The notes below the pieces were generated by a model. It was given only the letters and a program-made list of their open reading frames with translations, was not told the DNA's origin and searched no databases. Of a stretch of DNA of 25,040 nucleotides, positions 3,105 through 24,399 are shown in pieces; positions within the stretch are counted from its first letter, which is position 1, and each line of letters begins with the position of its first letter. The position numbers and the translations under genes were made by a program. The DNA comes from Candidatus Sigynarchaeum calidifontis (GTDB lineage: Archaea; Asgardarchaeota; Lokiarchaeia; Sigyniarchaeales; Sigyniarchaeaceae): the NCBI GenBank assembly GCA_030587475.2, contig JAUQYZ020000091.1, forward strand, positions 1 to 25,040. Reading direction: 5' to 3'.

Positions 3105-5120
3105 CTATTTGCCGTTCGCTGGAATGGCCGTGTCGAGCATCGCGAAGAGCTGGCGCTCGCGGAAGTGATTTTGGGAGATCGCGCCGCACGGGCAAGCCGC
3201 CGCGCACGTGCCGCAACCCTTGCATTGTGCCTCGTTGATGCTCACCTGGTTGCCCAGCTTGTCGAAGCTGATGGCGCCGTAGGGACAGAGATCGATGCAG
3301 CTCAAGCACCTGGAACACCTCGCCGAGTCGATTACACTGAAGTAGGGTTCTATCTCCACCTCGCCACGCGCCATCAAGGATGCCGCCGCGCTGGCAGCAC
3401 CCTTGGCCTGGGCGACCGCATCCGGGATGTCCTTGGGACCTTGCACGGCGCCGGCAACGAACACGCCGTCGGAAAGCGTGTCGACAGGCCGTAGTTTCGG
3501 GTGTGCTTCCATGAGGAAGCCATCGGCGGTCTGCGCGACGCCGATCATGCGGCTCAAGTCCTGGATGTCGGGGCGCGGCTCGAGGCCCACGGAAAGGACG
3601 ACCATCTCGACTTCGAGTTCGACCGGGCGCTTGAGCAGCGTGTCCTCGGCCCTGATGATGACGTTCTTGTTCGCCGGATTCTCGTAAATCTCCGATGCTC
3701 GCCCCCGGATGAACATGATCCCGTACTCGCGGGCCGCGATCTCGTAGAATTCCTCGTATCCCTTCCCGAACGCCCGGATGTCCATGTACAGGATGTATAT
3801 TTCTGCCTCGGGATGTTTCTCCTTGTACTGGCGGGCTTGTTTCATCGCGTACATGCAGCAAACCCTGCTGCAGTACGCGTGCATGCCGGCCTGGCAGTTC
3901 CGGCTGCCCACGCACTGGAGGAACGCTATCGAGTGCGGTGCCTTGCCATCGGAAGGCCGCACCGGCTTGCCCATGGTCGGCCCGAAGCTCGACAGCTCCC
4001 GTTCCATCTGGAGCCCCGTGATCACGTTCTCGAACCGGCCGAAGCCATAGGGCGCGTACTGGGTCGGATCGTAGGCGTCGTAGCCCGTTGCCGCGATGAT
4101 CGTCCCGACGTCGAGCTCGATTTTCTTGGGCTTGTCGTCGAAATTGATCGCGTGGGGCTCGCAAACGCTCTTGCAGAGGCCGCACTGGATGCAATGCTCG
4201 ATGTCGATCGTGTACTTGTTCGGGATGGCTTGCGGGAACGGGATGTAGATGGCCTTCCGGTCCTTCATGCCCTCGTCGAACTCGTTCTCCGTGATGACGG
4301 GACAGATATCGACACATCCACCGCAGCTATTGCATTTATCTTGATCCACGTAGTGTGGTTTCTTGTTGATGGTCACGTGGAAATTTCCCACGTAGCCGGA
4401 GATGTCCGTGACCTCGGCGTTGTTGATGATCTGGATGTTGGGGTGCTGGCCAACGGCACTCATCTCGGGGGTGATGATGCACGCGGAGCAGTCCATCGTC
4501 GGGAAGGTCTTGTCGAGCTGTGCCATGTGGCCGCCTATCGTGAGCGATTTCTCGACCAAGTAGGTCTTGAAATTTTGATTGGCGAGATCCTTGGCGACGT
4601 TGATGCCGGCAACTCCTCCACCGATCACGAGGGCTTCCGGCTTGACCTTGACCTTCATGACCTCGAGCGGTTCGAGGTTGCTCGCCTTGGCCACGGCGAT
4701 GCGCACGTGATCCATGGCTATCTCGAGCGCTTTCTCTTGCTGGCGCATGTGCACCCACGTGTTGTGCTCGCGGATGTTAGCTTGCTCGAAGAGGAACTGG
4801 TTCATGCCCGCTGATTTCAGCGTCTTGCGGAAGGTTGGCTCGTGCATGCGCGGGGAACACGCGGCGACGACGACGCGGTTTACCACGGCGTTCTTGATGT
4901 CATCCTTGATCATGTTTTGCCCCAGGTCCGAGCACATGAACTTGTATTGCACGACCTTGACCACGTTGGGAAGTGTTTTCGCGTAGGCTTCCAGCTTGTC
5001 CATGTTAATAACGCCGGCGATGTTGATGCCGCAATGGCACAAGTACACGCCCACCTTCGGTTCGGGACCAGGCGCACCCGCGCCTTGCGATGGGCCCGTT
5101 GAAGCGGTTTCGCTTGTCAT
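3105..5120 (-). CDS. hdrA: Heterodisulfide reductase subunit A (FAD, electron-bifurcating)
   Basis: GVYLCHCGINI, VVAACSPRMHE, ANIREH, FAD motif VIGGGVAG, GGHMAQLDKTFPTMDCSACI, QCVGSR...YCSRVCCMY, EAHPKLRPV, GPKDIPD and four CxxCxxCxxxC ferredoxin motifs. Confidence 0.97.
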   Translation of the reverse strand: MTSETASTGPSQGAGAPGPEPKVGVYLCHCGINIAGVINMDKLEAYAKTLPNVVKVVQYKFMCSDLGQNMIKDDIKNAVVNRVVVAACSPRMHEPTFRKTLKSAGMNQFLFEQANIREHNTWVHMRQQEKALEIAMDHVRIAVAKASNLEPLEVMKVKVKPEALVIGGGVAGINVAKDLANQNFKTYLVEKSLTIGGHMAQLDKTFPTMDCSACIITPEMSAVGQHPNIQIINNAEVTDISGYVGNFHVTINKKPHYVDQDKCNSCGGCVDICPVITENEFDEGMKDRKAIYIPFPQAIPNKYTIDIEHCIQCGLCKSVCEPHAINFDDKPKKIELDVGTIIAATGYDAYDPTQYAPYGFGRFENVITGLQMERELSSFGPTMGKPVRPSDGKAPHSIAFLQCVGSRNCQAGMHAYCSRVCCMYAMKQARQYKEKHPEAEIYILYMDIRAFGKGYEEFYEIAAREYGIMFIRGRASEIYENPANKNVIIRAEDTLLKRPVELEVEMVVLSVGLEPRPDIQDLSRMIGVAQTADGFLMEAHPKLRPVDTLSDGVFVAGAVQGPKDIPDAVAQAKGAASAAASLMARGEVEIEPYFSVIDSARCSRCLSCIDLCPYGAISFDKLGNQVSINEAQCKGCGTCAAACPCGAISQNHFRERQLFAMLDTAIPANGK

Positions 5121-5142
5121 GTCTTTTCTCCTCGCATGTTGC

Positions 5143-6096
5143 TCATTTCATGTTGGCAAGGATCTTGTCCATCAAGGGCTTCGTCGAAATGAACGGCGAC
5201 GTGCCCGCGGGCTTGTCTGCCGTCGGGAGCAGGCCCAGGTCGTACGGGCTCAAGCCCATGGCGAGCCCGAGCAGTTGCGTGTAGTATACGACGGGAATGT
5301 TGAATTCTTGCTGGAAGATCTGCTTGATCTCGACTTGCCCGAGATCGAACTGCAAGTGGCAGAACGGGCAAGCATCGACGACACAATCCACGCCTGCTTC
5401 CTTCATGTTCACCAGCTTTTCGCGCGTGAAATCGAGCGAGATATCCTTCACCGCCGTGCGAACACCGCCGCCCGCACCGCAGCACATGTACTTGTCCTTG
5501 TAGTCGATGCTATCTGCACCGGTTGCCTCGACGAGCTCGTCGAAGAATCTCGGGCGCTCGTTCTTTCCCCACGGGCGAATCTCCGTGGGCTTGAGCAAGT
5601 GGCAGCCATAATGCACGGCAACCTTGATGCCTCGCAAGGGATTGACCGCGAGATCCGCGACCGCGGGGACGCCGATGTCGTGGTAGATGATATCAAGGAT
5701 ATGGCGGACCTTCACGGTACCCTTGAACTCTCTCTTGATCTTGGCGAGAACGGCATTCGTGGCATTCCTTTTCTCGGGTTCCGATTGCATGATGTGGTTG
5801 GCCTCGAGCAGCGTGCCGAAGCAACCGTTGCAGATGACGGCAACGTCGCGCTTGTCTTCCTCGGCGATCGTGATGTTCCTGGCCGCGATGGCGAGCCAGG
5901 TAGGGATGTCGAATGACCGGAACACGCCTGGTGCGGGACAGCAGCTCGCGCCCTTCATGTCGTGGAGCGTGATGCCCAGCTTTTGGAACACGAGTTGCGT
6001 GGCGGCCTCGATTTGCGGGTATCGGTTCGGGCCGACGCAGCCGAGGTAGAAGTCGTAATCACGCACGATGTCCTTGGACGTGGCAGCTTCGGTCAT
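5143..6096 (-). CDS. hdrB: Heterodisulfide reductase subunit B (two CCG domains)
   Basis: YLGC...SCCPAPG...CNGC and HYGCH...CCGAGGG...CPFCHLQFD are the two non-cubane cluster motifs. The start overlaps the hdrC stop (ATGA). Confidence 0.96.
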   Translation of the reverse strand: MTEAATSKDIVRDYDFYLGCVGPNRYPQIEAATQLVFQKLGITLHDMKGASCCPAPGVFRSFDIPTWLAIAARNITIAEEDKRDVAVICNGCFGTLLEANHIMQSEPEKRNATNAVLAKIKREFKGTVKVRHILDIIYHDIGVPAVADLAVNPLRGIKVAVHYGCHLLKPTEIRPWGKNERPRFFDELVEATGADSIDYKDKYMCCGAGGGVRTAVKDISLDFTREKLVNMKEAGVDCVVDACPFCHLQFDLGQVEIKQIFQQEFNIPVVYYTQLLGLAMGLSPYDLGLLPTADKPAGTSPFISTKPLMDKILANMK

Positions 6097-6737
6097 TTCT
6101 TCTCCGCCTCCGCCTTGAGCTTCTTGAGCTGTTCCTCCAATGCCTGGATCTTTTTCGGCGCCATTTCCTTGTCTTTCTTGATCATCTCCTTTTGCATCTC
6201 CTCGCCATACGTTATCAACTCGTCAAACTTCATTTCCTTGACGATGGTCTGCACTTCCTTGAGGGCATCGGGATACGAATGCACGGTAGGTGGGATCGGC
6301 TGGAGCTTGAGCGATTTCCGGAGGTTCATCCAGTTCGGGCTCTTTTCATGGTCGAGTGGCACGCCATGCCCCGTGGCGATGAGGTTCTTCGAGACAGCGA
6401 TGTGCGGGCCGCGCATGAATCCCTTGTGGGCGGCGATGTTTCGCATCTTGAGAATGATGTCCGTGCTCGGCACGTCGCGTGGGCACCGCTCGTAGCACGT
6501 GTAGCACGTAGAACAAAGCCAGAGCAGATCTGACGTGAGAAGCTCGTCCGTGAGACCGACCAAGCCTTGTCGAATCAACTCTCTCGTGCGCATCGCCGTT
6601 CGGCGACCGGAGGGACATCCCCCCGAACATGTGCCACACTGGTAACAAGATTTGAATCGTTCGAGAAGCTCGTCCTCGACCACTTGTTCGACGATGGAAT
6701 GGTCGATCTTCTTGATAGTTTCTCGTTTTATTGACAT
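6093..6737 (-). CDS. hdrC: Heterodisulfide reductase subunit C (2x[4Fe-4S])
   Basis: CYQCGTCSGGCPSG and LWLCSTCYTCYERCPR motifs, plus TGHGVP and PPTVH. Start taken at the ATG of MSIKRE (6737); the ORF track extends to 6761. Confidence 0.94.
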   Translation of the reverse strand: MSIKRETIKKIDHSIVEQVVEDELLERFKSCYQCGTCSGGCPSGRRTAMRTRELIRQGLVGLTDELLTSDLLWLCSTCYTCYERCPRDVPSTDIILKMRNIAAHKGFMRGPHIAVSKNLIATGHGVPLDHEKSPNWMNLRKSLKLQPIPPTVHSYPDALKEVQTIVKEMKFDELITYGEEMQKEMIKKDKEMAPKKIQALEEQLKKLKAEAEKK

Positions 6738-7070
6738 GTGATATAAAACCTCGTCGTGCACCGAGATCGTGCTTGTATTCTATTCGCGCAACGAGTTATG
6801 TAGCTTATATTGATCAATTGGCTCCGAGACTTTTAATACGCTTTCATTACAAATCAAATCCCCGTGAACGCAGCGAAACACGGGATCGACCGCAAGATAG
6901 GATGCGACAGCAATCCTGTTTTTTCCTTTCGCATTCCGACATGCATACGATTGAAATGTGGAAAAAGCAACCATTTTTCGCTGATCGATCTTCGATCACA
7001 AACACGACCTCGGTTGAAACAAGGGATGGACCTTGCTCGGAATCAAGAAAAAAGCAGCACGTAATAAAGA

Positions 7071-11227: not shown

Positions 11228-12208
11228 CTAAGTCGCCTTGCACGCGCCGTCCGGCCGCGCTGCTTGCACGTAATGGAAGGCTGCCGTGCAAGCCTTGGCA
11301 CCATCAGCCGCGGCGGTGATGGCTTGCTTGAGCTTGTTGCTCGTCACGTCGCCAGCAGCGAACAAGCCCTCCACGTTCGTCTTGCAATCCTGATCCACGA
11401 TGATCTCGCCCTCCTTGTTGAGCTTCACGCCGAGATTCTTCACGAGATCAGACCTGGGCGTGAAGCCGACATCGATGAACACGCCCTTGGTTTCGATTTC
11501 CTGGCCCGTGTCGAGGATGACCTTGCAAACCATGCCTTTCTCGTCCGCGACGATTTCCTTGACGTTCGCGTTGTGGATGACCTCGATGTTGCTGCACGAG
11601 TAAACTTTCTCGGCCATGGCAGGCTCGGCCCGGATCTTGCCCTTCCGGTAGATCACGTAGACTTTCTTGGCGACACGGCTGAGAACGATCGCTTCCTTGG
11701 CAGCACTGTCCGAGCCACCGACGACGCAAGTGACCTTGTTCTTGAAAAATGCAGCATCGCACGTGGCACAGTAGCTCACGCCACAGCCGTCAGCATATTC
11801 CTCCTCGCCTTTCACGCCGAGCTTGCGCCGCTCGCTTCCCGTCGCGACAATCACGGAACGAGCAACGAATATCCTGTTTTCGGTCGCGATGGTAAAATCT
11901 TGCCCTTGCTTTACGATGGACTTGACCCGCTCGTTCACGACCCTCCCGCCGAGCGCGTCCAGGTGCACTTTGAACCTGTCCATCAATTCCTTGCCCTTCA
12001 CTGACGGGAAGCCAGGGTAGTTTTCGACGATATCTGCGGTGAGCATGAGTCCCCCGAGATCCTCGGCGATCATGGCATGTTTTAACATGAACCGGGTCGC
12101 GTAGATCGTCGCGGTATACCCGGCTGGCCCGCCACCGATGATCGCGACGTCAAGCTTTTCGTCGGTCACGTGCAATCGCTCTAGCGTGTTGTCAGTTGAT
12201 GGATCCAT
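11228..12208 (-). CDS. trxB: Thioredoxin-disulfide reductase
   Basis: IIGGGPAGYTA, VENYPG, IVATG, redox motif GVSYCATCD, VVGGSDSA, and TNVEGLFAAGDVT...KQAITAAADG. Start taken at the ATG at 12208. Confidence 0.92.
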   Translation of the reverse strand: MDPSTDNTLERLHVTDEKLDVAIIGGGPAGYTATIYATRFMLKHAMIAEDLGGLMLTADIVENYPGFPSVKGKELMDRFKVHLDALGGRVVNERVKSIVKQGQDFTIATENRIFVARSVIVATGSERRKLGVKGEEEYADGCGVSYCATCDAAFFKNKVTCVVGGSDSAAKEAIVLSRVAKKVYVIYRKGKIRAEPAMAEKVYSCSNIEVIHNANVKEIVADEKGMVCKVILDTGQEIETKGVFIDVGFTPRSDLVKNLGVKLNKEGEIIVDQDCKTNVEGLFAAGDVTSNKLKQAITAAADGAKACTAAFHYVQAARPDGACKAT

Positions 12209-12309
12209 GAAGGCCGGGGGAGTTTTATACACGCCTATCGCGCCCTTGACATGGGAAATTCACGGCATGAAGGCGGCCCTTTTTTATCGGCGCGGCATTC
12301 GACATCCCG

Positions 12310-15082: not shown

Positions 15083-16441
15083 TTAATTTGCCTGATTGCG
15101 AGCCATCCGCTGCTTGACCTCATCCTGGCTCAGCAAGCAGCACACGTAAAGCCCTATAATCGTCCAGGAAAAAGCAGCGTTGAGCAAGAATGCGAGCCTT
15201 GGCGCGGCTTTCCATTCCAGCAGCAGCCCGATCCCCACGGCAAGGGTGATATTGGCAAGGGTAGCGAACACGACGCCGAGCACCGCCACGACCGCGAGAA
15301 GCATCTCGGGCGTAGCGATCGAGAGTGCTTGGGGCCACTCGGTTACGACGATGTCGACGAGCGCGCCCCCGGACGTGAAAGCGATGCCAGCCAATACGAT
15401 GCATGTGAAACAACCACCGAACGTGATGCCTATGCTGGCCAACACGTTCACGTTGATATCTCTTTTGCGCTTGTTGTAAATAACCGCGAGCACGCATAGC
15501 GATCCAAACGAGATAGAAGCGATGCCCGTGAACACCAAGAGCAAGTGCAAGGCGCTCGCGTGTGCCGCCAGTGGTGCCCAGGCTCCCACGGCGATGGTTA
15601 CCAACCTGTCGACCAAGACAAGAAGGGCTATCCCCATGGCGAGGAAGGCGATGCCCAGGATCAAGCCGAGCCCGGACAAGACCGGTATGAGGTGCTGCTT
15701 GAGTCTCGCCCTCTGTTCCACGGGTGACCGGGGTGGTGGTACTTTCATTGCCAGGGCGTATAACCCAAACGGGATCACCCAGAACAGAGCGACGTACACG
15801 ATCGCGCCACCCTCGGCGTGCAAGGTCGTGAGGCTCCCGACGAAGAAATACAAGACCATGAAAACCCCAATGAACGCGGTGACCTTGAGCGCGAACCGCC
15901 GGTCAAGATTCTTCAACATGTACCAGAAAAACGGCATGAACGCGAGAACGAGACCCATGCCAGCGATCAGCGACAAGGCTGCATTGGCCGGGACGAGAGG
16001 TTCATACCAGAAATTGAAAAAATCATTGATCGACACGATGAACTCATCGAGATTGCCAATCTCGGGGAAAAGGTGGAAATTGCCTTGATGATTCATCACG
16101 CCGTCGAGGTAGACGTGCATGATGCCCCCGGCACATGCCAGGAGGAATGAATTCGCATACGGAATGCGGTTGTACCCGTTATCTTCCAGGATCCTTTTCT
16201 TGAAATTGGGTGAGAACCTGGTGAAATAAGAATAGAAAAATGCAAGAAAGAGCGCGAAGACAAGATAGCCCGCGTACGTGTGCGTGAAATAACCGATTCC
16301 GAGCACCCAACCGAGATCGGGGCCGAGATAATTGGCCAGGAAAAGGATCATAACGTGGTATTTCGAGAACCGCTTGTCGCTGATCATGTATAACGAATAC
16401 CCGACCATGCCGCCAAGGAAAAGATGTGCGATCGAGGGCAT
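15083..16441 (-). CDS. Polytopic membrane protein with N-terminal YdjM-like metal-dependent hydrolase domain
   Basis: MPSIAH, LGPDLG, FTHT and MHVYLD form the H/PD/HS-T/HxxxD signature, followed by many more hydrophobic segments. Confidence 0.7.
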   Translation of the reverse strand: MPSIAHLFLGGMVGYSLYMISDKRFSKYHVMILFLANYLGPDLGWVLGIGYFTHTYAGYLVFALFLAFFYSYFTRFSPNFKKRILEDNGYNRIPYANSFLLACAGGIMHVYLDGVMNHQGNFHLFPEIGNLDEFIVSINDFFNFWYEPLVPANAALSLIAGMGLVLAFMPFFWYMLKNLDRRFALKVTAFIGVFMVLYFFVGSLTTLHAEGGAIVYVALFWVIPFGLYALAMKVPPPRSPVEQRARLKQHLIPVLSGLGLILGIAFLAMGIALLVLVDRLVTIAVGAWAPLAAHASALHLLLVFTGIASISFGSLCVLAVIYNKRKRDINVNVLASIGITFGGCFTCIVLAGIAFTSGGALVDIVVTEWPQALSIATPEMLLAVVAVLGVVFATLANITLAVGIGLLLEWKAAPRLAFLLNAAFSWTIIGLYVCCLLSQDEVKQRMARNQAN

Positions 16442-16632: not shown

Positions 16633-17106
16633 ATGATCGAAGCGTTTTACCTCGTCAAGGAAAGCGGGCTCTCCATTTACACGTACCATCAAGATGACAA
16701 GAAAGCATCCGATCTCGACGACTTGATTTCGCCATTTCTTGCCGCGATCGATCTATTCTCGACGGAAAACTTCAAGGGGCGCATCAAGGCGATCGTCCTC
16801 GAGGATAACAGGAAGCTCTACTTCCGGTCGTTCAAGATCGCCGGGAACAAGATCATCAAGTTCATCGCCCTCACCAACACGGACAACATCGGCGAGCTCG
16901 ACGGGAAAATGATCAACTTGAAATGGATCATGGAAAGGCTCGGTAAATACCTCGATGATCCCACGGGCCGCCTCCCGCGACAGCTAGAAGCCGAGATCGT
17001 CGAAAAGATAAAGGGATTGCTCTCGTCACCCCCTCACGGTGCGGTTCATGGACGGGGGGAGAATGCCCCAGATGGCGCGATGTCTGCTCGTCGATTGCCG
17101 AGATAA
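16633..17106 (+). CDS. Longin-like domain protein (Asgard-type eukaryotic signature protein candidate)
   Basis: MIEAFYLVKESGLSIYTY...DDLISPFLAAIDLFSTE...IKAIVL...KLYF...KFIALT...helix gives the beta-beta-alpha-beta-beta-beta-alpha pattern. The SG-x-x-[IL]Y and LIS-x-FL-x-A-I-x-x-F motifs are typical of longin-like domains. Confidence 0.65.
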   Translation: MIEAFYLVKESGLSIYTYHQDDKKASDLDDLISPFLAAIDLFSTENFKGRIKAIVLEDNRKLYFRSFKIAGNKIIKFIALTNTDNIGELDGKMINLKWIMERLGKYLDDPTGRLPRQLEAEIVEKIKGLLSSPPHGAVHGRGENAPDGAMSARRLPR

Positions 17107-17221: not shown

Positions 17222-20200
17222 TCATGATGGCGGCTTTTCTTGCCGAGTGCTCGTCGCGTCTCCTTGGCCGGGCGGGCTTGCAGCCGGCGCGCTCTCTTTC
17301 GTTTCATCAACCGGCTTGGGTTCTAGCTGAGCATCTCCACCACCATCACCACCCGTACCAGCCTCTTCGCTTTGTGGCTGCGGGATGTCGATCGCGATAT
17401 CCGCGCCGCACGACCAGCATTTCTCGCCTTTCTGCTTGAGGACAAGGGCGCAAGTCATGCAATAGAACACCTTGCACTTCGGGCACAAGAAAATAGCGCC
17501 GGCTATCGGTCCCTTGTGCACCACGCAGATGTGTTGCGTCTCGAACGCCTGCACTTCTTTCTCGGTCTTCTCCATCTCCGCGCGGTCTTTCTCGGTCATC
17601 TGCGCCGGTTGCTCAACCTCCACTCCTGCTTTTGCATCCATGCCGGGGAGTTTGCCTTTTGCTAACATAACACCGGTTGGTGCTGCCTTTCCAACAGCCG
17701 GGCGTTTTTTTGTAGCATCTTCTGAGCCTCTTAACTTCGCTTTCTTAGCCCGGATCTTCTTTCTTTGCCTGCTGCCCATGGCAGCGATCACGATACCGAT
17801 GAACGCGACTCCACAAAGAACGATGATCAGCGCGAGGTTGAAAGGCGATGCCGGCTGCGTGATCGTGATGATGACCGTGTCCCGCCCGCTGTACCCGAGC
17901 GTGTTGTTGAACTCGGCCGTGTAGTTGTAGACGCCGGCGACGGTCGTGTGGATCGTGAAGTTGATCTGCATGCCCGTTGTCCAAGCTGTCCAGTTGGTCG
18001 CGGGTGTACCATCGAGCAAGATGCGGTATTGCCCGCCAACGCCGTATGGATCGAAGAGGGTCCAGTGGAGGACTCTATCGCCCGTGTTTTGCGGGAAGGA
18101 TTGATCGAGCGGTCCCGTGGCTGTCGGGTAAAGGGACGAGCTCGTTATCCAGAACGGCCCCAGGTGGAATATCACCGAGCCATGGCCGACTGCATCGACT
18201 GCACGGATGTTGAAATAGTAATCGTTCGCAGAAGCGAGGACCGGGCTCAATGCAGATAGGCCATAAGGCTCTGTCGCATTATCCACTCCCTGAACACCGC
18301 GAGTCCACGAATACGAATACCCGACGACGCCCGAGCCGTTGCCATCGCTCGTGGCGGACCACGAGACGTTTATGATGTTCGTCATCGAAGGAACGCCGAC
18401 CACGTGCGTGTTGCTCGTTGGTACGGGGGCTGACGGGGGAGTCACGTCGACGTAGAACGGGCCGATGGATGCCGACGACGAGACCATGCCGACGCCATCG
18501 ATCGCAGCGATGTTGAAGTACCAATCGGTTCCTTCCCCGAGCGGGCTACTGCTAGTCGACGTGCTGGCCGTGTCGATGGTCGAATCCGGGACCGCTGCCC
18601 CGTGGGTCCATGAAACCGAGTACCCGGCGACGCCGGAGCCATCACTATCCCCGGGATTGCTCCACGAGACAGAAATAACGGGGATTGCAGACCACGTGCT
18701 TTGCACGTGCGTGCTCGATGTTGGTGACGGAATCCCGGGAGCCTGGGTGTCAATGCGGAACGGCCCGAGCGATGCATGCGACGACCATTGGCCGACCGCA
18801 TCCACCGCCCGTATGTTAAAGTACCAGTCGTTCGCGTCGGCTAGCGGAGCACTCAATAACGAACAGAGCGACGTCATTGGTGTTGTGCCTGGGACCTGGG
18901 GGCCGCGTGTCCACGAGTAAGAGAAATTGACCACGCCTGAGCCGCCCCAATCGCTTGGCATGCTCCACGTTATGTTGACTACCGTGGTTGACGACCATGT
19001 TAACGGCGCATGCGTCGGGCTCCACGGGGACGGCGCCGCTGGCGAGTTTCCATCGATATAGAATGGCCCCAACGACGTTATACTTGACCATAAACCAACC
19101 ATGTCTACTGACCGAATGTTGAAGTACCAGTCATTCGCGTCTGTTAACGCCGGACTCAACAGCGTCCGGAAAGAAGTCATGAGCGTTGTGCCCGGATCGT
19201 GTGCACCTCGTGTCCATGAATATGAATATCCCGCGATCCCAGAGCCGTTATCCGAGGGTGATATCCACGTGACGTTGATCACGGTCGTCATGGACCACGT
19301 GGATACCACGTGCGTCGGGCTGGCCGGCTCTGGTGCCGCGGGCGGGTCCGTGTCGATGAAAAACGGCCCCACGCTCGTGACCGCGGACCACGATCCGGCA
19401 CCATCTCGGCTGCGGATATTAAAATACCATGCGTTACCGGTGGAAAGGGATGGGCTTAACACGGACGTGCTCGTCGTGGTGACGGCCGTGCCGGGGTTTG
19501 CTGCCCCCACGGTGAACGAGGTTGCATAACCTGCAATGCCGGAACCGCCGACATCGCCGGGCACTATCCATGTCATGTTGATGATGGCATTGATGCTCCA
19601 CACCGAGATAGAATGGGTGGTACTCGCAGGACTTGGCGGAGATGGAGGTGAGTTGTCGATCCAGAAAGGACCAATCCAGGTAACCGGCGATGGACTGCCC
19701 GCCCCATCTATCGCGATGATGCAAAAATACCAGCTATTGCCCGCAGGCCGCCAGCCCGTGTGGGTCGTGGAATTGTCAATAACGGTCGATCCGGGGGTTA
19801 CAGGAGATGTTGCCCACGTATACGAGTATCCAGCTATCCCGGAACCTCCCATGTCCGACGCAACGTCCCACGCAAGGTCGATCCACGTGTCATTGGACCA
19901 CTGGCTCACTATGTGCGAAATGCTGTGTAGATTTTGGACGGCGGCGGGTGGAGTGGCATCGATCAAGAAGGGGCCCAGCGACGCGACCGTGCTCCACTTG
20001 TACGTGTTGTCCGAGGCGCGAATGTTGAAGTACCACGTGCCGCTGCCGAGCGCCGTGCTGTTGATTGTTCGTGCCGTGGTCATTATACTGGTGCCGGGAT
20101 CCGCTGGCGAATCATTAGTCCAAGCGTACGAATAGCCGGCCACGCCCGAGCCGTCGCCATCGCTTGGCATGCTCCACGTAATGTTGACTATCGTGGTTGA

Positions 20201-23200
20201 TGACCATGTTGACGGCGCGTGCGTTGGGCTCCACGGGGACGGCGCCGCGGGGGGCTCCACGTCGATGTAGTATGGCCCGACGCTCCTGACCCCCGACCAC
20301 GAACCGGCATTATCTCGGCAGCGCAAGTTGAAGTACCAATTGTTGCCGGTGAACAGGGACGTGCTCAGAATCCACGTGTTGTTGGTAGTTATCGTGGTGC
20401 CCGGGTCAGATGCCCCGATGGTGAACGAAACGGCATAGCCGGCGATGCCCGAACCGCCCGTATCGTTGGCCACCGGCCACGTCATGTTGATGATTGAGGC
20501 GTTGCTCCAGACCGAGAACGAGTGGGTGGTGCTCCATGGGGCTGGCGCCGAGGGCGGGGACGTGTCGATCCAGAACGGGCCGATCCAGACGTTGGTCGAC
20601 GGGTTGCCAGCGAGGTCGATCGCGATGATGTTGAAGAACCAGCTTTGCGAGTTGCCGAGGGAACCGCTCGTGCAAGTCGTGCTGTTGCCATCGATGCCGA
20701 AATCCGGGGTCATGGGGATCAGCATCCAGGTATACGAATAACCCGCAATGCCGGAACCGCCCCCGTCCGTGGCGGCGTCCCACGCGAGATCGACCGTGCC
20801 ATCGTTCGACCATTGGCTGATGACGTGCGAAAGGCTGTGGAGGTTTTGGATCGGGGCAGGCGGCGTGATGTCGATTAAGAACGGGCCCAGCGACGCGACC
20901 GTGCTCCAATTGCCCGTGTTGTCCGAGGCGCGAATGTTGAAGTACCACCGGCCAGTTCCCAATGGTATGCTATTTACCGTGAGGCCGGTCGTCGTGATCG
21001 TGGTGCCGGGATCGGCTGAAGAACCATTAGTCCACGAGCACGAGTACCCGGCGATGCCGCTTCCACCGAAATCGGTCGGGAGCGTCCATTGCATCGTGAT
21101 CACGTTACTGCTGTTCCAGACACCTATCTGGTGGGATGGGGACGTCGGCGAAGGGGCTGCAGGCGCCATGGAGTCCTTTCCGAACCGCCATCGCCATTCG
21201 CCGCTCTCGCCCACGATGTTGTTGAGATCATCGCTCGCCGAGAAGTAGAGCACGTGCCAGCCTTCTGGCAAGACTTCCCACGTTAAATTGTCCATTTGCC
21301 ACCCAGCTTGCGACCAGGTCGTTCCGCTCGCCCCGGAGAATAAAATATTGTCCGGCGTCGCGTCGTCGACGTCCCAACAGCCGTTGTTGATGCCCGCGGC
21401 GTCCATGAACTCGAGATCGAGGATGGGGTTCGTACTATGCCAGGTGTTGTTCGCGGGAAGGATCCCCGTGTTCCACGCGGGCCCCGTGTTGTCCGTGATG
21501 AACGTGTAGTTACGGATCGCGGTATTTCCCGACGAGTCATTGGCCATCAAGGACAAGATGTGGGGCCCCTCGACCGGGCAGAAATTGACGTAGGCATCTG
21601 GAGCCAGCGAGAACCAACCTGACACCCCGACCCACCTGTACTGGAACGTCGACAAGTACGAATCCGTCGCTGTCACGTGGATCGTTGCTGATGAACGGGC
21701 TCTCGTGCCATTCGCGGGCGATACCAGGTTGATCGATGGTGCGGTGACATCGTAGACGAGTTTCGTGAGGAACGCATCGTCGCTCCCTTGGTCGCTCTGG
21801 TAGGGATTCCAAAGTGGGAAAGTGGTCCCGGTGGTCCACCCACATACGGCGACAGATTCGCCATCAATGATCGCTAAACCTTCCGGGCTGTCGTCTCCCG
21901 CGCCTGGGCTGCCGAGATACGTAGAAAACACGAGCGAATTTCCTGCGCTCGTGAACCGAACGACCATCGTGTCGATATCCGTTTGCCGGCCTTGAAATGC
22001 ATTCACCAACGGCATGCCGGGGGATCGCGTAGAAAAGGCCACGCAAATCTCCCCGGTCGGGCATACGTCTATCTCTTTCCCCGCATCCGTGCTCAATCCT
22101 CCAAAAAACGTGCTAAAGACCAGCGAATTTCCTGTCACGGATAGCTTGCTCACGAAGCCATCCGACGAGCTGTTCTTGGATGCATCATACGCGTTTTGGG
22201 TTGGAAAATTCACGCTGGAAGAATCCCCGGTGACATACGCATATCCCGAACTATCCACGGCTATTCCATTACCATAATCCGTGGAATCTCCACCTAGATA
22301 CGTGGAATACACGAGTGTATTGCCCGAGATGCCTACTTTTGTCACGAAGGCATCATAGGTGCCATCGCCGGGATCGGACATGATTTGGTTCACACAAGGA
22401 TAATTGGTGGAATAAGTCCTTCCCGTGATGTAGGCGTAACCGCTATCATCCACGTCGATGTCGAAGAGTCCGTCTTCGTTCGATCCACCGATGATAGTGC
22501 TGTAAATAAGAGTGTTCCCAGATTGCGTGAACCGAGCGATGAAAACGTCGTAATCAGAGCCGCTCGTGCTCTTGTACGAGTTGATCTTCGGGAAATCGGC
22601 GGAATACGTGTCTCCACCGACGAATGCGCACCCGCTTGGATCCACGTCGATAGCATTCCCCAAGTCAGTACCACTCCCGCCAAGATACGTGCTGAAAACC
22701 AACCCGTTGCCTGTAGCGTTCAATTTCGTGACGAACGCGTCCGTGCCACCTGGACGAATCGGGTATGCAGCGTTCACAAGTGGAAAATCTGGTGATTGGG
22801 TTGATCCTGTTATATATACGTTGCCGTCGTTTCCAACCGCCACTTGATTCGATCTATCTAATGACGAACCTCCTATATACGTGCTATACGCAAGGCTACC
22901 GTTTTCATAGAACTTCATGACGAACGCGTCATAACTCGCGTCACCTGGATCGCCCATGTATGGTTTCTTGGTTGGAAAATCTACCGAGGTCGTGCATCCT
23001 GTTAAATATATATTCTTGGCCTCATCCGCCGCAACATCATAGGCATAATCATAAGATGCTCCTCCAATATACGTGCTGAACGTCGTGATGAGCGGATCGA
23101 TGACCGTTGGCAATCCTGGATCGTAGCTTGCGAGAACGAAGCGAATGGCGTTCTCGCGATCCTCGTCCAGCAAGAATGCCGACGGGATCAATTCACCGGC

Positions 23201-23932
23201 ACCTTGGTACACGTTCAAGGCACTTTCCTTGTACAAGGCTTGCCCGTTTACCCTGGAAATTGCCGTGATGTTGTCCGGAGTTACCTCTAGCACAGCGTTG
23301 GTGGAAAAGTGCATCGAGATCAACGATGGATCGACACCTGCATCGAGCACGAACTCGTATTTCAGCCCTTGTTCTGCCATGTAATAGCGCAAGTCGATCC
23401 CGTCATAAAGGTCGTGGTACCAGATCTCGCCATAGCTCGGGACATCCGTGTATTGACTGCTCCCGATGAAATAATTCGTGAAATGCGCCATCACTCCCGT
23501 CCCGCAAGGCTCCACGAGATTTCCACCTGGAAAATCCAGTCGCAACGTTTCCTTGCCGGTTCCATTAATGCCCCACGTCACGAAACGCACCGAGCTCGAT
23601 TCGAATCCGATCCACTGGTCTTTTCCTTGAAGATAGTATAACACGTCCGGATCCGCCACCTGGCCGTCGTTCTGGACGAATCCCGAGAACTTGGACTTGT
23701 TCATGCGTGTAAATATCTCGCTGGTGTTTAGAAGCGGCTTGAACGACACGATCTCGCCGCTATCCTCGATCGAGGATTTCCCGCGCGGGATCGCTCTGGC
23801 ATTACCATGTTCATCATGAAATGCTGCGGAAATGACGAGCGACGAATAGATCACGCCGATGAGGAAGATCGGGACGAAGAATCCCATGAAGAATGAGCGT
23901 TTCTTGGTGGTGGTCTGCTTGTTCAGTTTCAT
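17222..23932 (-). CDS. Giant (~2236 aa) membrane-anchored surface glycoprotein: SBBP beta-propeller, Ig-like domains, 10 FnIII-like repeats, TM helix, cytoplasmic RING-like Zn finger
   Basis: The likely start MKLNKQTTTKKR is followed by a hydrophobic segment; the ORF track extends to 24049. The protein has an SBBP-associated N-terminal domain (GFVQNDGQ, LYDGIDLRYY, LKYEF, VIDP), 7 SBBP repeats, 2 Ig-like units, 10 repeats, 1 Ig-like unit, a TM at about 17775-17843, a basic stretch and a CxxH/CxxC/CxxC/CxxC finger at 17408-17527. Many NxS/T sequons lie before the TM. Confidence 0.9.
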   Translation of the reverse strand: MKLNKQTTTKKRSFFMGFFVPIFLIGVIYSSLVISAAFHDEHGNARAIPRGKSSIEDSGEIVSFKPLLNTSEIFTRMNKSKFSGFVQNDGQVADPDVLYYLQGKDQWIGFESSSVRFVTWGINGTGKETLRLDFPGGNLVEPCGTGVMAHFTNYFIGSSQYTDVPSYGEIWYHDLYDGIDLRYYMAEQGLKYEFVLDAGVDPSLISMHFSTNAVLEVTPDNITAISRVNGQALYKESALNVYQGAGELIPSAFLLDEDRENAIRFVLASYDPGLPTVIDPLITTFSTYIGGASYDYAYDVAADEAKNIYLTGCTTSVDFPTKKPYMGDPGDASYDAFVMKFYENGSLAYSTYIGGSSLDRSNQVAVGNDGNVYITGSTQSPDFPLVNAAYPIRPGGTDAFVTKLNATGNGLVFSTYLGGSGTDLGNAIDVDPSGCAFVGGDTYSADFPKINSYKSTSGSDYDVFIARFTQSGNTLIYSTIIGGSNEDGLFDIDVDDSGYAYITGRTYSTNYPCVNQIMSDPGDGTYDAFVTKVGISGNTLVYSTYLGGDSTDYGNGIAVDSSGYAYVTGDSSSVNFPTQNAYDASKNSSSDGFVSKLSVTGNSLVFSTFFGGLSTDAGKEIDVCPTGEICVAFSTRSPGMPLVNAFQGRQTDIDTMVVRFTSAGNSLVFSTYLGSPGAGDDSPEGLAIIDGESVAVCGWTTGTTFPLWNPYQSDQGSDDAFLTKLVYDVTAPSINLVSPANGTRARSSATIHVTATDSYLSTFQYRWVGVSGWFSLAPDAYVNFCPVEGPHILSLMANDSSGNTAIRNYTFITDNTGPAWNTGILPANNTWHSTNPILDLEFMDAAGINNGCWDVDDATPDNILFSGASGTTWSQAGWQMDNLTWEVLPEGWHVLYFSASDDLNNIVGESGEWRWRFGKDSMAPAAPSPTSPSHQIGVWNSSNVITMQWTLPTDFGGSGIAGYSCSWTNGSSADPGTTITTTGLTVNSIPLGTGRWYFNIRASDNTGNWSTVASLGPFLIDITPPAPIQNLHSLSHVISQWSNDGTVDLAWDAATDGGGSGIAGYSYTWMLIPMTPDFGIDGNSTTCTSGSLGNSQSWFFNIIAIDLAGNPSTNVWIGPFWIDTSPPSAPAPWSTTHSFSVWSNASIINMTWPVANDTGGSGIAGYAVSFTIGASDPGTTITTNNTWILSTSLFTGNNWYFNLRCRDNAGSWSGVRSVGPYYIDVEPPAAPSPWSPTHAPSTWSSTTIVNITWSMPSDGDGSGVAGYSYAWTNDSPADPGTSIMTTARTINSTALGSGTWYFNIRASDNTYKWSTVASLGPFLIDATPPAAVQNLHSISHIVSQWSNDTWIDLAWDVASDMGGSGIAGYSYTWATSPVTPGSTVIDNSTTHTGWRPAGNSWYFCIIAIDGAGSPSPVTWIGPFWIDNSPPSPPSPASTTHSISVWSINAIINMTWIVPGDVGGSGIAGYATSFTVGAANPGTAVTTTSTSVLSPSLSTGNAWYFNIRSRDGAGSWSAVTSVGPFFIDTDPPAAPEPASPTHVVSTWSMTTVINVTWISPSDNGSGIAGYSYSWTRGAHDPGTTLMTSFRTLLSPALTDANDWYFNIRSVDMVGLWSSITSLGPFYIDGNSPAAPSPWSPTHAPLTWSSTTVVNITWSMPSDWGGSGVVNFSYSWTRGPQVPGTTPMTSLCSLLSAPLADANDWYFNIRAVDAVGQWSSHASLGPFRIDTQAPGIPSPTSSTHVQSTWSAIPVISVSWSNPGDSDGSGVAGYSVSWTHGAAVPDSTIDTASTSTSSSPLGEGTDWYFNIAAIDGVGMVSSSASIGPFYVDVTPPSAPVPTSNTHVVGVPSMTNIINVSWSATSDGNGSGVVGYSYSWTRGVQGVDNATEPYGLSALSPVLASANDYYFNIRAVDAVGHGSVIFHLGPFWITSSSLYPTATGPLDQSFPQNTGDRVLHWTLFDPYGVGGQYRILLDGTPATNWTAWTTGMQINFTIHTTVAGVYNYTAEFNNTLGYSGRDTVIITITQPASPFNLALIIVLCGVAFIGIVIAAMGSRQRKKIRAKKAKLRGSEDATKKRPAVGKAAPTGVMLAKGKLPGMDAKAGVEVEQPAQMTEKDRAEMEKTEKEVQAFETQHICVVHKGPIAGAIFLCPKCKVFYCMTCALVLKQKGEKCWSCGADIAIDIPQPQSEEAGTGGDGGGDAQLEPKPVDETKESAPAASPPGQGDATSTRQEKPPS
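18146..21175 (-). repeat. Ten tandem ~303-bp (~101 aa) FnIII/Ig-like coding repeats
   Basis: 3030 bp = 1010 aa. Each unit reads approximately D-x-x-PP...S-x-[TS]H...WS...W...D-x-GGSG[IV]AGY...WYFNI-x-A-x-D-x-x-G-x-x-S...GPF-x-I. Confidence 0.9.
21758..23080 (-). repeat. Seven SBBP beta-propeller coding repeats (~63 aa each)
   Basis: Seven copies of [FY]ST[YIF][ILF]G[GS]...D...[IV]AVD..G..Y[IV]TG.T.S.[DN]FP...DAF[VL].K. Confidence 0.88.
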
Positions 23933-24183
23933 GAACCAAGTACCCCAGATCCACCTAATTAACTTATTGGGGATGGGCGATGATTGAAGACGTTGATGGA
24001 TCGACGCCAATAATTCGATGCTGCGCGATGATCTCCACGTGCCAGCCATGATAGAAACATGATGGGCATCGTGAGTCTCGTCAATCTCAAAATCGCCTTG
24101 ATACTTGCGTTCGAGGCCGCTGAGTTCGATTTCGCGGCATTGGGTGGTTCGATTGCGACCGGTAGAAATATCTGGCTATTTAA

Positions 24184-24399
24184 TCATACTGCGACCAATA
24201 TGGCATCGAATCGCTCTTCTGGCACAGGTATCTTGTCATCATCCAAGGCCTTGATATACCCGTCGATTGCTTCTTCGATGTTGATGATGGCTTCTTCCTT
24301 CGTCTTCCCCTGGCTCACACAGCCAGGAAGGCTTGGGCATTCTGCAATCCAATACCCGTCCTCGCCCGGATAGATCATGACTTGTCGCAACGTTACCAT
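24184..24399 (-). CDS. hicB: HicB-family antitoxin (short form, no DNA-binding domain)
   Basis: RQVMIYPGEDGYWIAECPSLPGCVSQGKTKEEAIINIEEAIDGYIKALDDDKIPVPEE is a classic HicB/UPF0150 sequence. Confidence 0.9.
   Translation of the reverse strand: MVTLRQVMIYPGEDGYWIAECPSLPGCVSQGKTKEEAIINIEEAIDGYIKALDDDKIPVPEERFDAILVAV

Follow-up and report, generated by a model that had tools for sequence, protein, structure and literature searches.

A giant surface protein of an Asgard archaeon with a predicted cytoplasmic RING-type finger: a candidate membrane-tethered ubiquitin ligase

The gene and its product

The window, which is the whole stretch of 25,040 nucleotides that was analysed, carries on its minus strand at 17222..23932 a gene for a type I membrane protein of 2,236 aa; the stop codon (17224-17222) is within this span. 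The open frame is longer (17222..24049, minus strand) and would give 2275 aa from its first methionine, M1. The exact 2236-aa product starting at M40 is a called gene in the public collection, from which the M1 form is absent, and in the same-genus orthologue the start is conserved only at MKL (M40, MKLNKQ...) and in the sequence beyond. Because the public gene call and the orthologue both favour it, M40 (23932) is preferred over M1 (24049), in agreement with the start chosen by the first-pass annotation. Residues are numbered here from M1 at 24049, and 39 has to be subtracted for the M40 form. All features described below are on the minus strand. The giant surface-protein gene is neighboured by a 157-aa ORF.

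The product is well supported as a single-pass surface glycoprotein of the adhesin type, with its N-terminus outside and its C-terminus inside the cell and a propeller head on a FnIII stalk.

Leader and ectodomain

The protein begins with a signal-like leader (residues 40-76, 23822..23932), recognized by hydropathy and kept in the orthologue, in which a K/R-containing n-region, MKLNKQTTTKKR, is followed by a hydrophobic core; the hydrophobic stretch itself spans residues 51-79. The leader is followed by a DUF7948 domain (residues 124-320, 23090..23680; Pfam 103.1 bits, cut-off 27) and by a seven-blade SBBP beta-propeller (residues 324-770, 21740..23080), whose seven repeats occupy residues 324-745 with a period of 64 aa. 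The SBBP match of 102.9 bits (cut-off 20.5) places the head of the protein in the SBBP/DUF7948 class.

Behind the head, segmentation gives two putative non-repeat beta domains (residues 771-959, 21173..21739; 72% identity to the orthologue). Repeat alignment and predicted fold then define a tandem array of ten FnIII repeats, each about 101 aa long (residues 960-1969, 18143..21172), and segmentation a membrane-proximal module (residues 1970-2065, 17855..18142) that recurs in other surface proteins of relatives. One 101-aa repeat was modelled by AF2 as an FnIII beta-sandwich with a pLDDT of 95.1, and Foldseek matched the model to FN1 of Robo3 and Fn3 of titin (E 4e-4 to 2e-3, TM-score up to 0.73). 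The repeats are assigned to the FnIII class on this predicted fold; Pfam fn3 has no match in the protein. The repeats share 39-62% pairwise identity with the reference repeat, and TRF detects no tandem array at the DNA level, which rules out an assembly artefact or a collapsed repeat.

The protein contains 37 N-x-S/T sequons, compared with the 24 that its composition predicts; all of them fall in the ectodomain, and the tail has none. The picture drawn from the first reading of the DNA, of an N-terminal hydrophobic leader and a sequon-rich ectodomain of about 2000 aa with a seven-blade propeller on about 13 Ig/FnIII-like domains, is therefore upheld: the stalk comprises two, ten and one domains, 13 in all.

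Membrane anchor and tail

A single transmembrane (TM) helix (residues 2070-2092, 17774..17842) reaches a hydropathy of 3.06 and is followed by 12 K/R within 28 residues. These begin a K/R-rich stop-transfer stretch that continues into a poorly conserved linker (residues 2093-2150, 17600..17773). The rest of the tail consists of a conserved acidic helix (TEKEV) with a RING-like finger (residues 2151-2224, 17378..17599; eight-ligand core at 17408-17527) and a low-complexity C-terminal end rich in P, E, G and A (residues 2225-2275, 17225..17377; 42% identity to the orthologue). In relatives, this region contains additional zinc ribbons or else a helical domain; the domains added there have generic zinc-ribbon matches or none.

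The tail, at 181 aa with 29 K/R, is close to the 190 aa originally estimated, and the single helix and its positive-inside stretch are as first described. With its position on the positive-inside flank of the sole C-terminal TM helix, the tail is predicted to be cytoplasmic. The charge pattern is family-wide, with 5.1 K/R in the 15 residues downstream of the helix versus 0.8 upstream. In the comparison with the same-genus orthologue, the acidic helix and finger (88% identity) are the best-conserved part of the protein; the ectodomain is 47-72% identical, the linker 32% and the TM helix 28%.

A RING-superfamily finger

The finger reads C2175-x2-H2178-x10-C-x2-C-x4-C-x2-C-x10-C-x2-C2214, so the eight ligands announced for it are all present. 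Across 149 modules of the family none of the seven Cys varies, and ligand 2 is H in 77% and C in 22%; eight Cys/His ligands are thus kept in a conserved register, as in the RING superfamily, whose fold is a binuclear cross-brace treble clef. In an AF2 model of the finger (pLDDT 85.7), two short strands come first and a helix follows ligand 6, that is, a single predicted beta-beta-alpha domain. The top Foldseek matches of this model are the RINGs of RING1B/BMI1, TRAF3 and MDM2, with a probability of about 1, yet with E-values of just 0.02-0.2; ZZ domains are also among the matches and, with lower TM-scores, so are a few small zinc proteins of the ribosome. In an exhaustive VIA search with the same model, RING-type fingers or U-boxes make up about 47 of the top 50 matches, and the RING of RNF146 ranks first (Z 6.6, rmsd 1.9 A over 52 residues).

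Profile searches point the same way. The family profile, run by hmmsearch against PDB sequences, matches the RINGs of TRIM37 (E 7.7e-5), RNF4 (5.8e-4) and MDM2 (2.5e-3), and also TFIIH p44 (4.6e-4 to 7.2e-4). An hhalign comparison of 106 family modules with the Pfam-positive zf-RING_2-type fingers of the same genome gives a probability of 96.4% and E 1e-9 over 56 columns, with all eight ligands aligned. This similarity to accepted RINGs is found although the Pfam RING models stay below cut-off: searches of Pfam and NCBIfam with the tail alone yield nothing above cut-off, the best models being an ANCHR-like B-box, C1_4, zf-C3HC4_3 and Prok-RING_1 (E 0.003-0.2). A DZR match (E 1.6e-5, below cut-off) is confined to small soluble paralogues that have an extra N-terminal CPSC pair.

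That the finger might be two independent zinc ribbons is rejected on the AF2 model and the fold matches, which predict one RING-type domain that the profiles relate to true RINGs. It is well supported, on the strength of these models, that the tail carries one binuclear RING-superfamily finger after the conserved acidic helix.

The nature of the tail also raises the idea that it is released by cleavage in or near the membrane, in a Notch-like or anti-sigma-like manner, and then targets nucleic acid or transcription. Its K-rich composition and zinc finger would suit such a role, as would the generic zinc ribbons that some relatives add after the finger. We regard this as very improbable, however: no DNA-binding family is matched in Pfam or NCBIfam, no protease gene is linked, and the fold matches are to RING-type rather than nucleic-acid-binding fingers, save for the few ribosomal zinc proteins.

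A portable cassette in one Asgard order

In the public protein library the finger family accounts for 1,218 clusters, and our literature search found no paper that describes it. An Asgard origin of the DNA, as first guessed, proves right. This genome has about 11 copies, and relatives have as many as 24. In a sample of 301 genomes of the phylum, the family is confined to a single order. The E2, but not the finger family, is present in a sister family of that order, which indicates that the E2 does not depend on the finger; three single-contig genomes of sister family f3 (4.4, 4.3 and 6.0 Mb) contain only weak matches to it.

The finger is nearly always 40-150 residues inside of a TM helix, and the ectodomains that precede the tail include beta-helix, PKD, Ig, FnIII and propeller types. 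The tail recurs behind diverse ectodomains, as the HMM check proposed at the outset was to show, both in this genome and in the 1,218 clusters. The TM helix, basic stretch, acidic helix and finger are a portable cassette, placed behind hundreds of fast-evolving ectodomains in one Asgard order.

Such a cassette could chiefly serve to sort, insert or retain very large secreted proteins, as a cytoplasmic knot that would hold or mark the C-terminus during export and anchoring, with no signalling. The finger is indeed at or near the extreme C-terminus in proteins of 55 to 5,839 aa with unrelated ectodomains, as C-terminal sorting cassettes are, and a TM helix lies at most 150 residues upstream in 76 of the 83 family proteins of at least 400 aa. 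We nevertheless consider this explanation improbable. No TM helix at all is present in 42 of the top 150 members (some of them short fragments), some soluble members have 4-7 tandem fingers, and soluble copies of 67-70 aa occur in this very genome. Moreover, a plain anchor needs no binuclear finger conserved to this degree and with a conserved exposed face.

The host ubiquitin system and the function of the finger

The genome has the ubiquitin/E2 system on which a ligase would depend. One operon on contig C26 encodes a ubiquitin-like protein, an E1-like ThiF, a UQ_con E2 (92 bits) and a JAB protease; there is also a second E2 paralogue. The operon E2 has HPN and Cys motifs and is 70-77% identical in nearly all the orthologues found across the families of the order. 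Adjacency to ubiquitin genes has to be rejected as a general feature of the finger family: in the five richest genomes, only 1 of 91 finger genes is within 5 kb of a ubiquitin match, and none is in this genome. One more family gene is about 8 kb from an E2 (G138:C123).

The positions of the finger that correspond to the E2-binding face of RINGs are strongly conserved in the family: Val two residues after the first Cys (C1+2) in 91%, Leu at C6+4 in 93% and Trp at C7+1 in 93%. In srfp, an archaeal E3, I30 and W58 are required for activity (PMC5654768); the family Val at C1+2 and Leu at C6+4 are at the equivalent positions. Compared with canonical RINGs, as with srfp and the genome's own RINGs, the family has Leu for the helix Trp and Trp for the Pro expected after ligand 7, and lacks a conserved linchpin. 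At the linchpin position, which follows the last Cys, this protein has Gly, and the family has G (35%), K (18%) or E (12%). The R69A substitution at this position impaired the activity of srfp (PMC5654768), and K/R is likewise absent from it in the genome's own zf-RING_2-type fingers. The family also has a signature, HKGPIxG ... ExCW, that is absent from canonical RINGs.

The best explanation of these findings, to which we give a little less than an even chance, is a membrane-tethered RING-type E3 on an adhesin-like surface glycoprotein, coupled to contact. Its architecture and fold are well supported; ligase activity is its weak step. The finger would act as a membrane-tethered docking site for E2~ubiquitin, the E2 binding the usual RING face through the Val after the first Cys, the Leu of the central helix and the Trp of the second zinc loop. 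When ectodomains crowd or bind a ligand, their tails would come into the proximity that dimeric RINGs require; ubiquitin would go onto the tail itself or nearby membrane or cortical proteins; and tail clustering would tie contact at the surface to turnover or to sorting of the ubiquitin/ESCRT type.

Alternatively, the finger may be a non-catalytic module for binding or self-association, like p44, B-boxes, ZZ and MYND, that clusters tails or ties them to a cytoplasmic partner (cortex, cytoskeleton, ESCRT or chaperone) and transfers no ubiquitin. The finger of TFIIH p44 is best known as a protein-binding module, and the ligand spacing here is almost the same. Sub-threshold matches to C1_4 and B-box models are at least as frequent as those to RING models, and the ZZ domains in the Foldseek output, the unconserved linchpin, the signature foreign to canonical RINGs and the lack of linkage to ubiquitin genes all fit such a module. 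Set against it are the strongest profile and structure matches, which are to catalytic RINGs, the conserved exposed hydrophobics at E2-contact positions, and the complete ubiquitin cascade of the genome, which needs E3s. On balance we rate it as a serious, if somewhat doubtful, possibility.

Of the proposal in the first-pass annotation, that the protein is an E3 or signalling adhesin, the predicted RING-type fold and the host ubiquitin cascade thus stand. Transfer and signalling are no more than plausible, given Pfam RING scores below cut-off, Gly at the linchpin and the rarity of ubiquitin genes nearby, and the labels 'receptor' and 'signalling' are ones that we infer. Since hundreds of surface proteins in the order carry it, the tail is a candidate link between the cell surface and the ubiquitin system.

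Significance

In place of an ordered S-layer, Asgard archaea have numerous complex surface proteins, displayed on one single membrane (PMC9834061). Reconstitution of their ubiquitin cascade, and of the connection between it and ESCRT, has used only small soluble RING proteins (PMC5654768; bioRxiv 10.1101/2023.07.25.550441). With at least 1,200 clusters placing a RING-type finger at the inner end of surface proteins, the family described here would supply membrane-resident ligases or adaptors to this system and would offer a plausible route to sense what touches the cell. It bears on cell-cell contact and membrane-protein sorting before eukaryotes.

A bolder proposal, which we think unlikely, is that one Asgard order independently evolved a large, fast-diversifying set of receptor-type ubiquitin ligases in which contact leads to ubiquitylation at the inner membrane face and on to ubiquitin/ESCRT. 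If true, it would give the receptor down-regulation and outside-in signalling of eukaryotes a counterpart among prokaryotes. If the finger is non-catalytic, it is still a new and abundant cytoplasmic handle by which to trace the inner partners of Asgard surface proteins.

Comparison with known systems

The head of the protein resembles that of the Leptospira LipL53 family (NF047494), which also combines DUF7948 with an SBBP propeller, both above Pfam cut-offs here. With the NCBIfam equivalog model, whose cut-off is 400, the protein scores 53 bits, and LipL53 is a lipoprotein, whereas the archaeal protein is TM-anchored with a predicted cytoplasmic finger.

Among archaeal fingers, soluble RING proteins of Asgard archaea and Aigarchaeota are proven E3s (PMC5654768; bioRxiv 10.1101/2023.07.25.550441). 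The srfp of Caldiarchaeum subterraneum (PMC5654768) and the RING E3 of Helarchaeia (bioRxiv 10.1101/2023.07.25.550441) share with the family finger its eight ligands and a host with the same Ub/E1/E2 cascade, and the family retains a hydrophobic residue at the position equivalent to srfp I30. The genome's own zf-RING_2-type fingers likewise have eight ligands, and their C-P-x-C-x4-[H/C]-x2-C core spacing is common to the family finger. The family finger is CHC6 (ligand 2 His, ligand 5 Cys) rather than C4HC3 as in these RINGs. Srfp is small, soluble and operon-encoded, whereas the family finger is membrane-tethered behind huge ectodomains and is not beside ubiquitin or E2 genes.

In ligand spacing the C4C4 finger of TFIIH p44/Ssl1 (C1_4, PF07975; PDB 1z60, 5o85) is nearly identical, with x2,x11,x2,x4,x2,x10,x2 versus x2,x10,x2,x4,x2,x10,x2 in the family and an aromatic residue before ligand 5 in both; VIA matches p44 (8ebs_E) with Z 5.2. 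The C1_4 score of 13.7-18.1 bits is below the cut-off of 28.9, the protein has no vWA domain, and the p44 finger belongs to a nuclear context, the family finger to a membrane one.

In overall layout the closest parallel is with the eukaryotic ectodomain-TM-RING ligases, namely RNF43/ZNRF3, the PA-TM-RING protein RNF13, GRAIL/RNF128 and plant RMR. The order of signal peptide, ectodomain, single TM helix and cytoplasmic RING-type finger is the same, and likeness in function hinges on the E3 reading. Unlike PA-TM-RING proteins, the protein described here has no PA domain (no Pfam match), its finger is CHC6 and not RING-H2 (C3H2C3), and its ectodomain of propeller and FnIII stalk is about 10 times larger; it thus belongs to neither the PA-TM-RING nor the RNF43/ZNRF3 group. 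Given its restriction to a single Asgard order, we regard the family as an analogue, and not an orthologue, of these eukaryotic ligases.

Gene model and genomic context

The gene for the giant surface protein is a single minus-strand open frame (window 17222..24049) of 2275 aa, counted from the 24049 start, which is M1 in the residue numbering used here. The first-pass annotation had placed the start at 23932 (M40), and this is the likely one, since public gene calls already contain exactly this 2236-aa product, together with five close members sharing >=90% identity; the M1 form is absent from that record. In the orthologue from the same-genus genome G302, a gene spread over two contigs, an MKL start and leader are the sole part conserved as a start.

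Directly upstream lies a 71-aa HicB-like antitoxin (24184-24399, minus strand; PF15919, 33.5 bits). A 157-aa ORF (16633-17106, plus strand) runs toward the giant gene's 3' end; farther downstream, 15083-16441 (minus strand) encodes a polytopic membrane protein of 452 aa. Pfam has no match for either. Elsewhere in the window, consecutive genes (3105-6761, minus strand) encode a flavoprotein resembling HdrA and carrying 4Fe-4S domains, an HdrB-like protein with a CCG domain and an HdrC-like 4Fe-4S protein; nearby are genes for a sulfatase (639-2255) and for a protein resembling thioredoxin reductase (11228-12232).

Protein architecture

By hydropathy, the leader has a K/R n-region followed by a hydrophobic core, and the sole other strong hydrophobic segment lies at residues 2070-2092. 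Between them are DUF7948 (124-320, Pfam), a seven-bladed SBBP propeller with a period of 64 residues (324-745, from Pfam SBBP and repeat spacing), a pair of beta domains (771-959), ten tandem repeats of 101 aa each that are 39-62% identical among themselves (960-1969; window 18143-21172, minus strand) and a membrane-proximal domain (1970-2065). The model of one repeat (pLDDT 95) matches FnIII domains found in Robo3, titin, myomesin and gp130. TRF detects no array at the DNA level, which indicates that the repeats are old and leads us to reject an assembly artefact as their source. The array looks to be built from super-units of three repeats: repeat 4 shares 62% identity with repeat 1, against 40% with repeat 2 and 50% with repeat 3, and repeats 2 and 5 share a distinctive 'QNLHS.SH' start. 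All 37 N-x-S/T sequons fall in the ectodomain (composition predicts 24), and the tail has none.

The transmembrane helix is preceded by a nearly uncharged stretch and followed by 12 K/R in 28 residues. The 181-aa tail is rich in K/A/G/E/P, and 7 of the protein's 22 cysteines are packed into 40 of its residues, forming a finger with the spacing C-x2-H-x10-C-x2-C-x4-C-x2-C-x10-C-x2-C.

The finger is a predicted RING-type domain

An AF2 model of the finger, computed from an alignment of ten paralogous modules of the host genome, has a pLDDT of 85.7, a helix directly after ligand 6 and two short strands, a predicted arrangement that is the RING core. Its best Foldseek matches are the RINGs of RING1B/BMI1, TRAF3, MDM2 and PCGF, with the p62 ZZ domain also among the matches; the probability is about 1, and the modest E values (0.02-0.2) reflect the domain's small size. 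In an exhaustive structural search RING/U-box domains make up nearly all of the top 50, led by RNF146 (Z 6.6, 1.9 A across 52 residues). A Z below 8 might by itself reflect a common arrangement, and sequence evidence therefore matters. The family profile matches the TRIM37 RING (E 7.7e-5) and the TFIIH p44 C-terminal finger (4.6e-4), as well as RNF4 and MDM2, among PDB sequences, and hhalign of 106 family modules against the host's native zf-RING_2-positive fingers brings all eight ligands into register, at 96.4% probability and E 1e-9. The native RINGs share the core spacing C-P-x-C-x4-[H]-x2-C with the tail finger, which therefore reads as derived from the local RING type with Cys in place of His, Leu in place of Trp and Trp in place of Pro. 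The Pfam RING, B-box and C1_4 models all score below their own cut-offs for the finger. From fold model and profiles together, we conclude that it is a single predicted RING-type domain.

A membrane cassette confined to one order

The host genome has about 11 strong finger copies (tblastn and profile search). Several have the order leader, ectodomain, transmembrane helix, finger, with ectodomains that are NosD/beta-helix plus TSP3, Glucodextran_B/Big_13-like or unmatched; others are small soluble proteins. A profile search of 1.84 billion representatives yields 1,218 clusters at E <=1e-3 and 611 at <=1e-10, with proteins of 55 to 5,839 aa. A transmembrane helix lies within 150 residues upstream of the finger in 100 of the top 150 members and in 76 of the 83 proteins of at least 400 aa, with a mean of 5.1 K/R in the 15 residues that follow the helix and 0.8 before it. 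Ectodomains in 45 members include beta-helix/NosD (15), PKD (8), Big_13, fn3, Big_7, TSP3 and several propeller types. A common motif, T-x-E-E-L-x-E-L-x-K-T-E-x-E-V, precedes the finger, which is followed by nothing, by additional zinc ribbons or by a helical domain without family match. The finger family is thus a membrane cassette.

Soluble members include tandem 67- and 70-aa proteins (contig C192, L007:2897-3100 and 3153-3365, both minus strand) with the same finger and an extra N-terminal CPSC pair, possibly free-standing versions of the tail module. P0128 (362 aa) and P0131 (376 aa) have 6-7 matched stretches, that is, tandem fingers, and lack a transmembrane helix.

Among 301 genomes sampled across the phylum (E <=1e-6), finger matches are restricted to the window's own order, where they occur in the window's family and in 55 of 68 genomes of family f2, with up to 24 copies per genome. 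At this threshold the sister family f3 (0/7) and the families outside the order (0/225) have none; three single-contig f3 genomes give weak matches at best. Helix plus finger is 88% identical to the G302 orthologue, against 47-72% for ectodomain parts, 42% for the C-terminal end, 32% for the linker and 28% for the transmembrane segment. As E2 is 90% identical between the two genomes, the finger is kept as tightly as the core enzyme. By these identities, the outside of the protein evolves fast while the finger is held.

Ligase or adaptor

The host encodes a ubiquitin system. On contig C26 are a Ub-like gene and genes for a ThiF-type E1, for a UQ_con E2 (with the HPN motif and the catalytic Cys) and for a JAB protease; adjoining the operon is one for a 585-aa vWA protein that ends in a ubiquitin domain (L024:9691-11448, minus strand), and a 378-aa gene without family match lies between the JAB and vWA genes. 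Of 61 genomes from the order, 60 have the E2. Most genomes of the order carry two E2 paralogues, about 75% and 45% identical to the operon E2; in some f3 genomes only the 45% type is seen. A 200-aa ORF at the start of contig C202 (48-647, plus strand) combines an RWD/UBC-like domain (Pfam RWD 25.2 bits, cut-off 22.8) with a C-terminal RING/PHD-like finger, a layout reminiscent of RNF25 or FANCL.

The tail finger may, at somewhat under even likelihood, be a putative RING-type E3 or E2-docking site. Its RING homology favors this, as do exposed, very highly conserved hydrophobic residues at the positions where RINGs contact E2 (V at C1+2, 91%; L at C6+4, 93%; W at C7+1, 93%), the V and L being counterparts of I30 and W58 in srfp, the proven small RING finger E3 of archaeal ubiquitin operons. 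A conserved helix also precedes the finger and may be likened to the helices that flank dimeric RINGs. However, the linchpin position is Gly in the giant protein and variable across the family, although it is likewise non-basic in the host's canonical RINGs. In the five richest genomes just 1 of 91 family genes has a ubiquitin gene within 5 kb, and the host has no such case; the ligand spacing is nearest to that of the TFIIH p44 finger, a protein-binding module. A non-catalytic adaptor is a possible reading, somewhat less likely than the ligase one, and sorting or other roles for the cassette are less probable still.

Comparison with known systems

The archaeal RING E3s found in our literature search are soluble (PMC5654768), and it yielded no account of archaeal RING tails tethered to a membrane; the 5,839-aa family member is publicly annotated merely as a 'beta strand repeat-containing protein'. 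The giant surface protein with a RING-like tail, as first noted, is real and well defined. Its known part is the predicted RING finger, its function is putative, and its architecture, undescribed in archaea, is familiar in eukaryotes.
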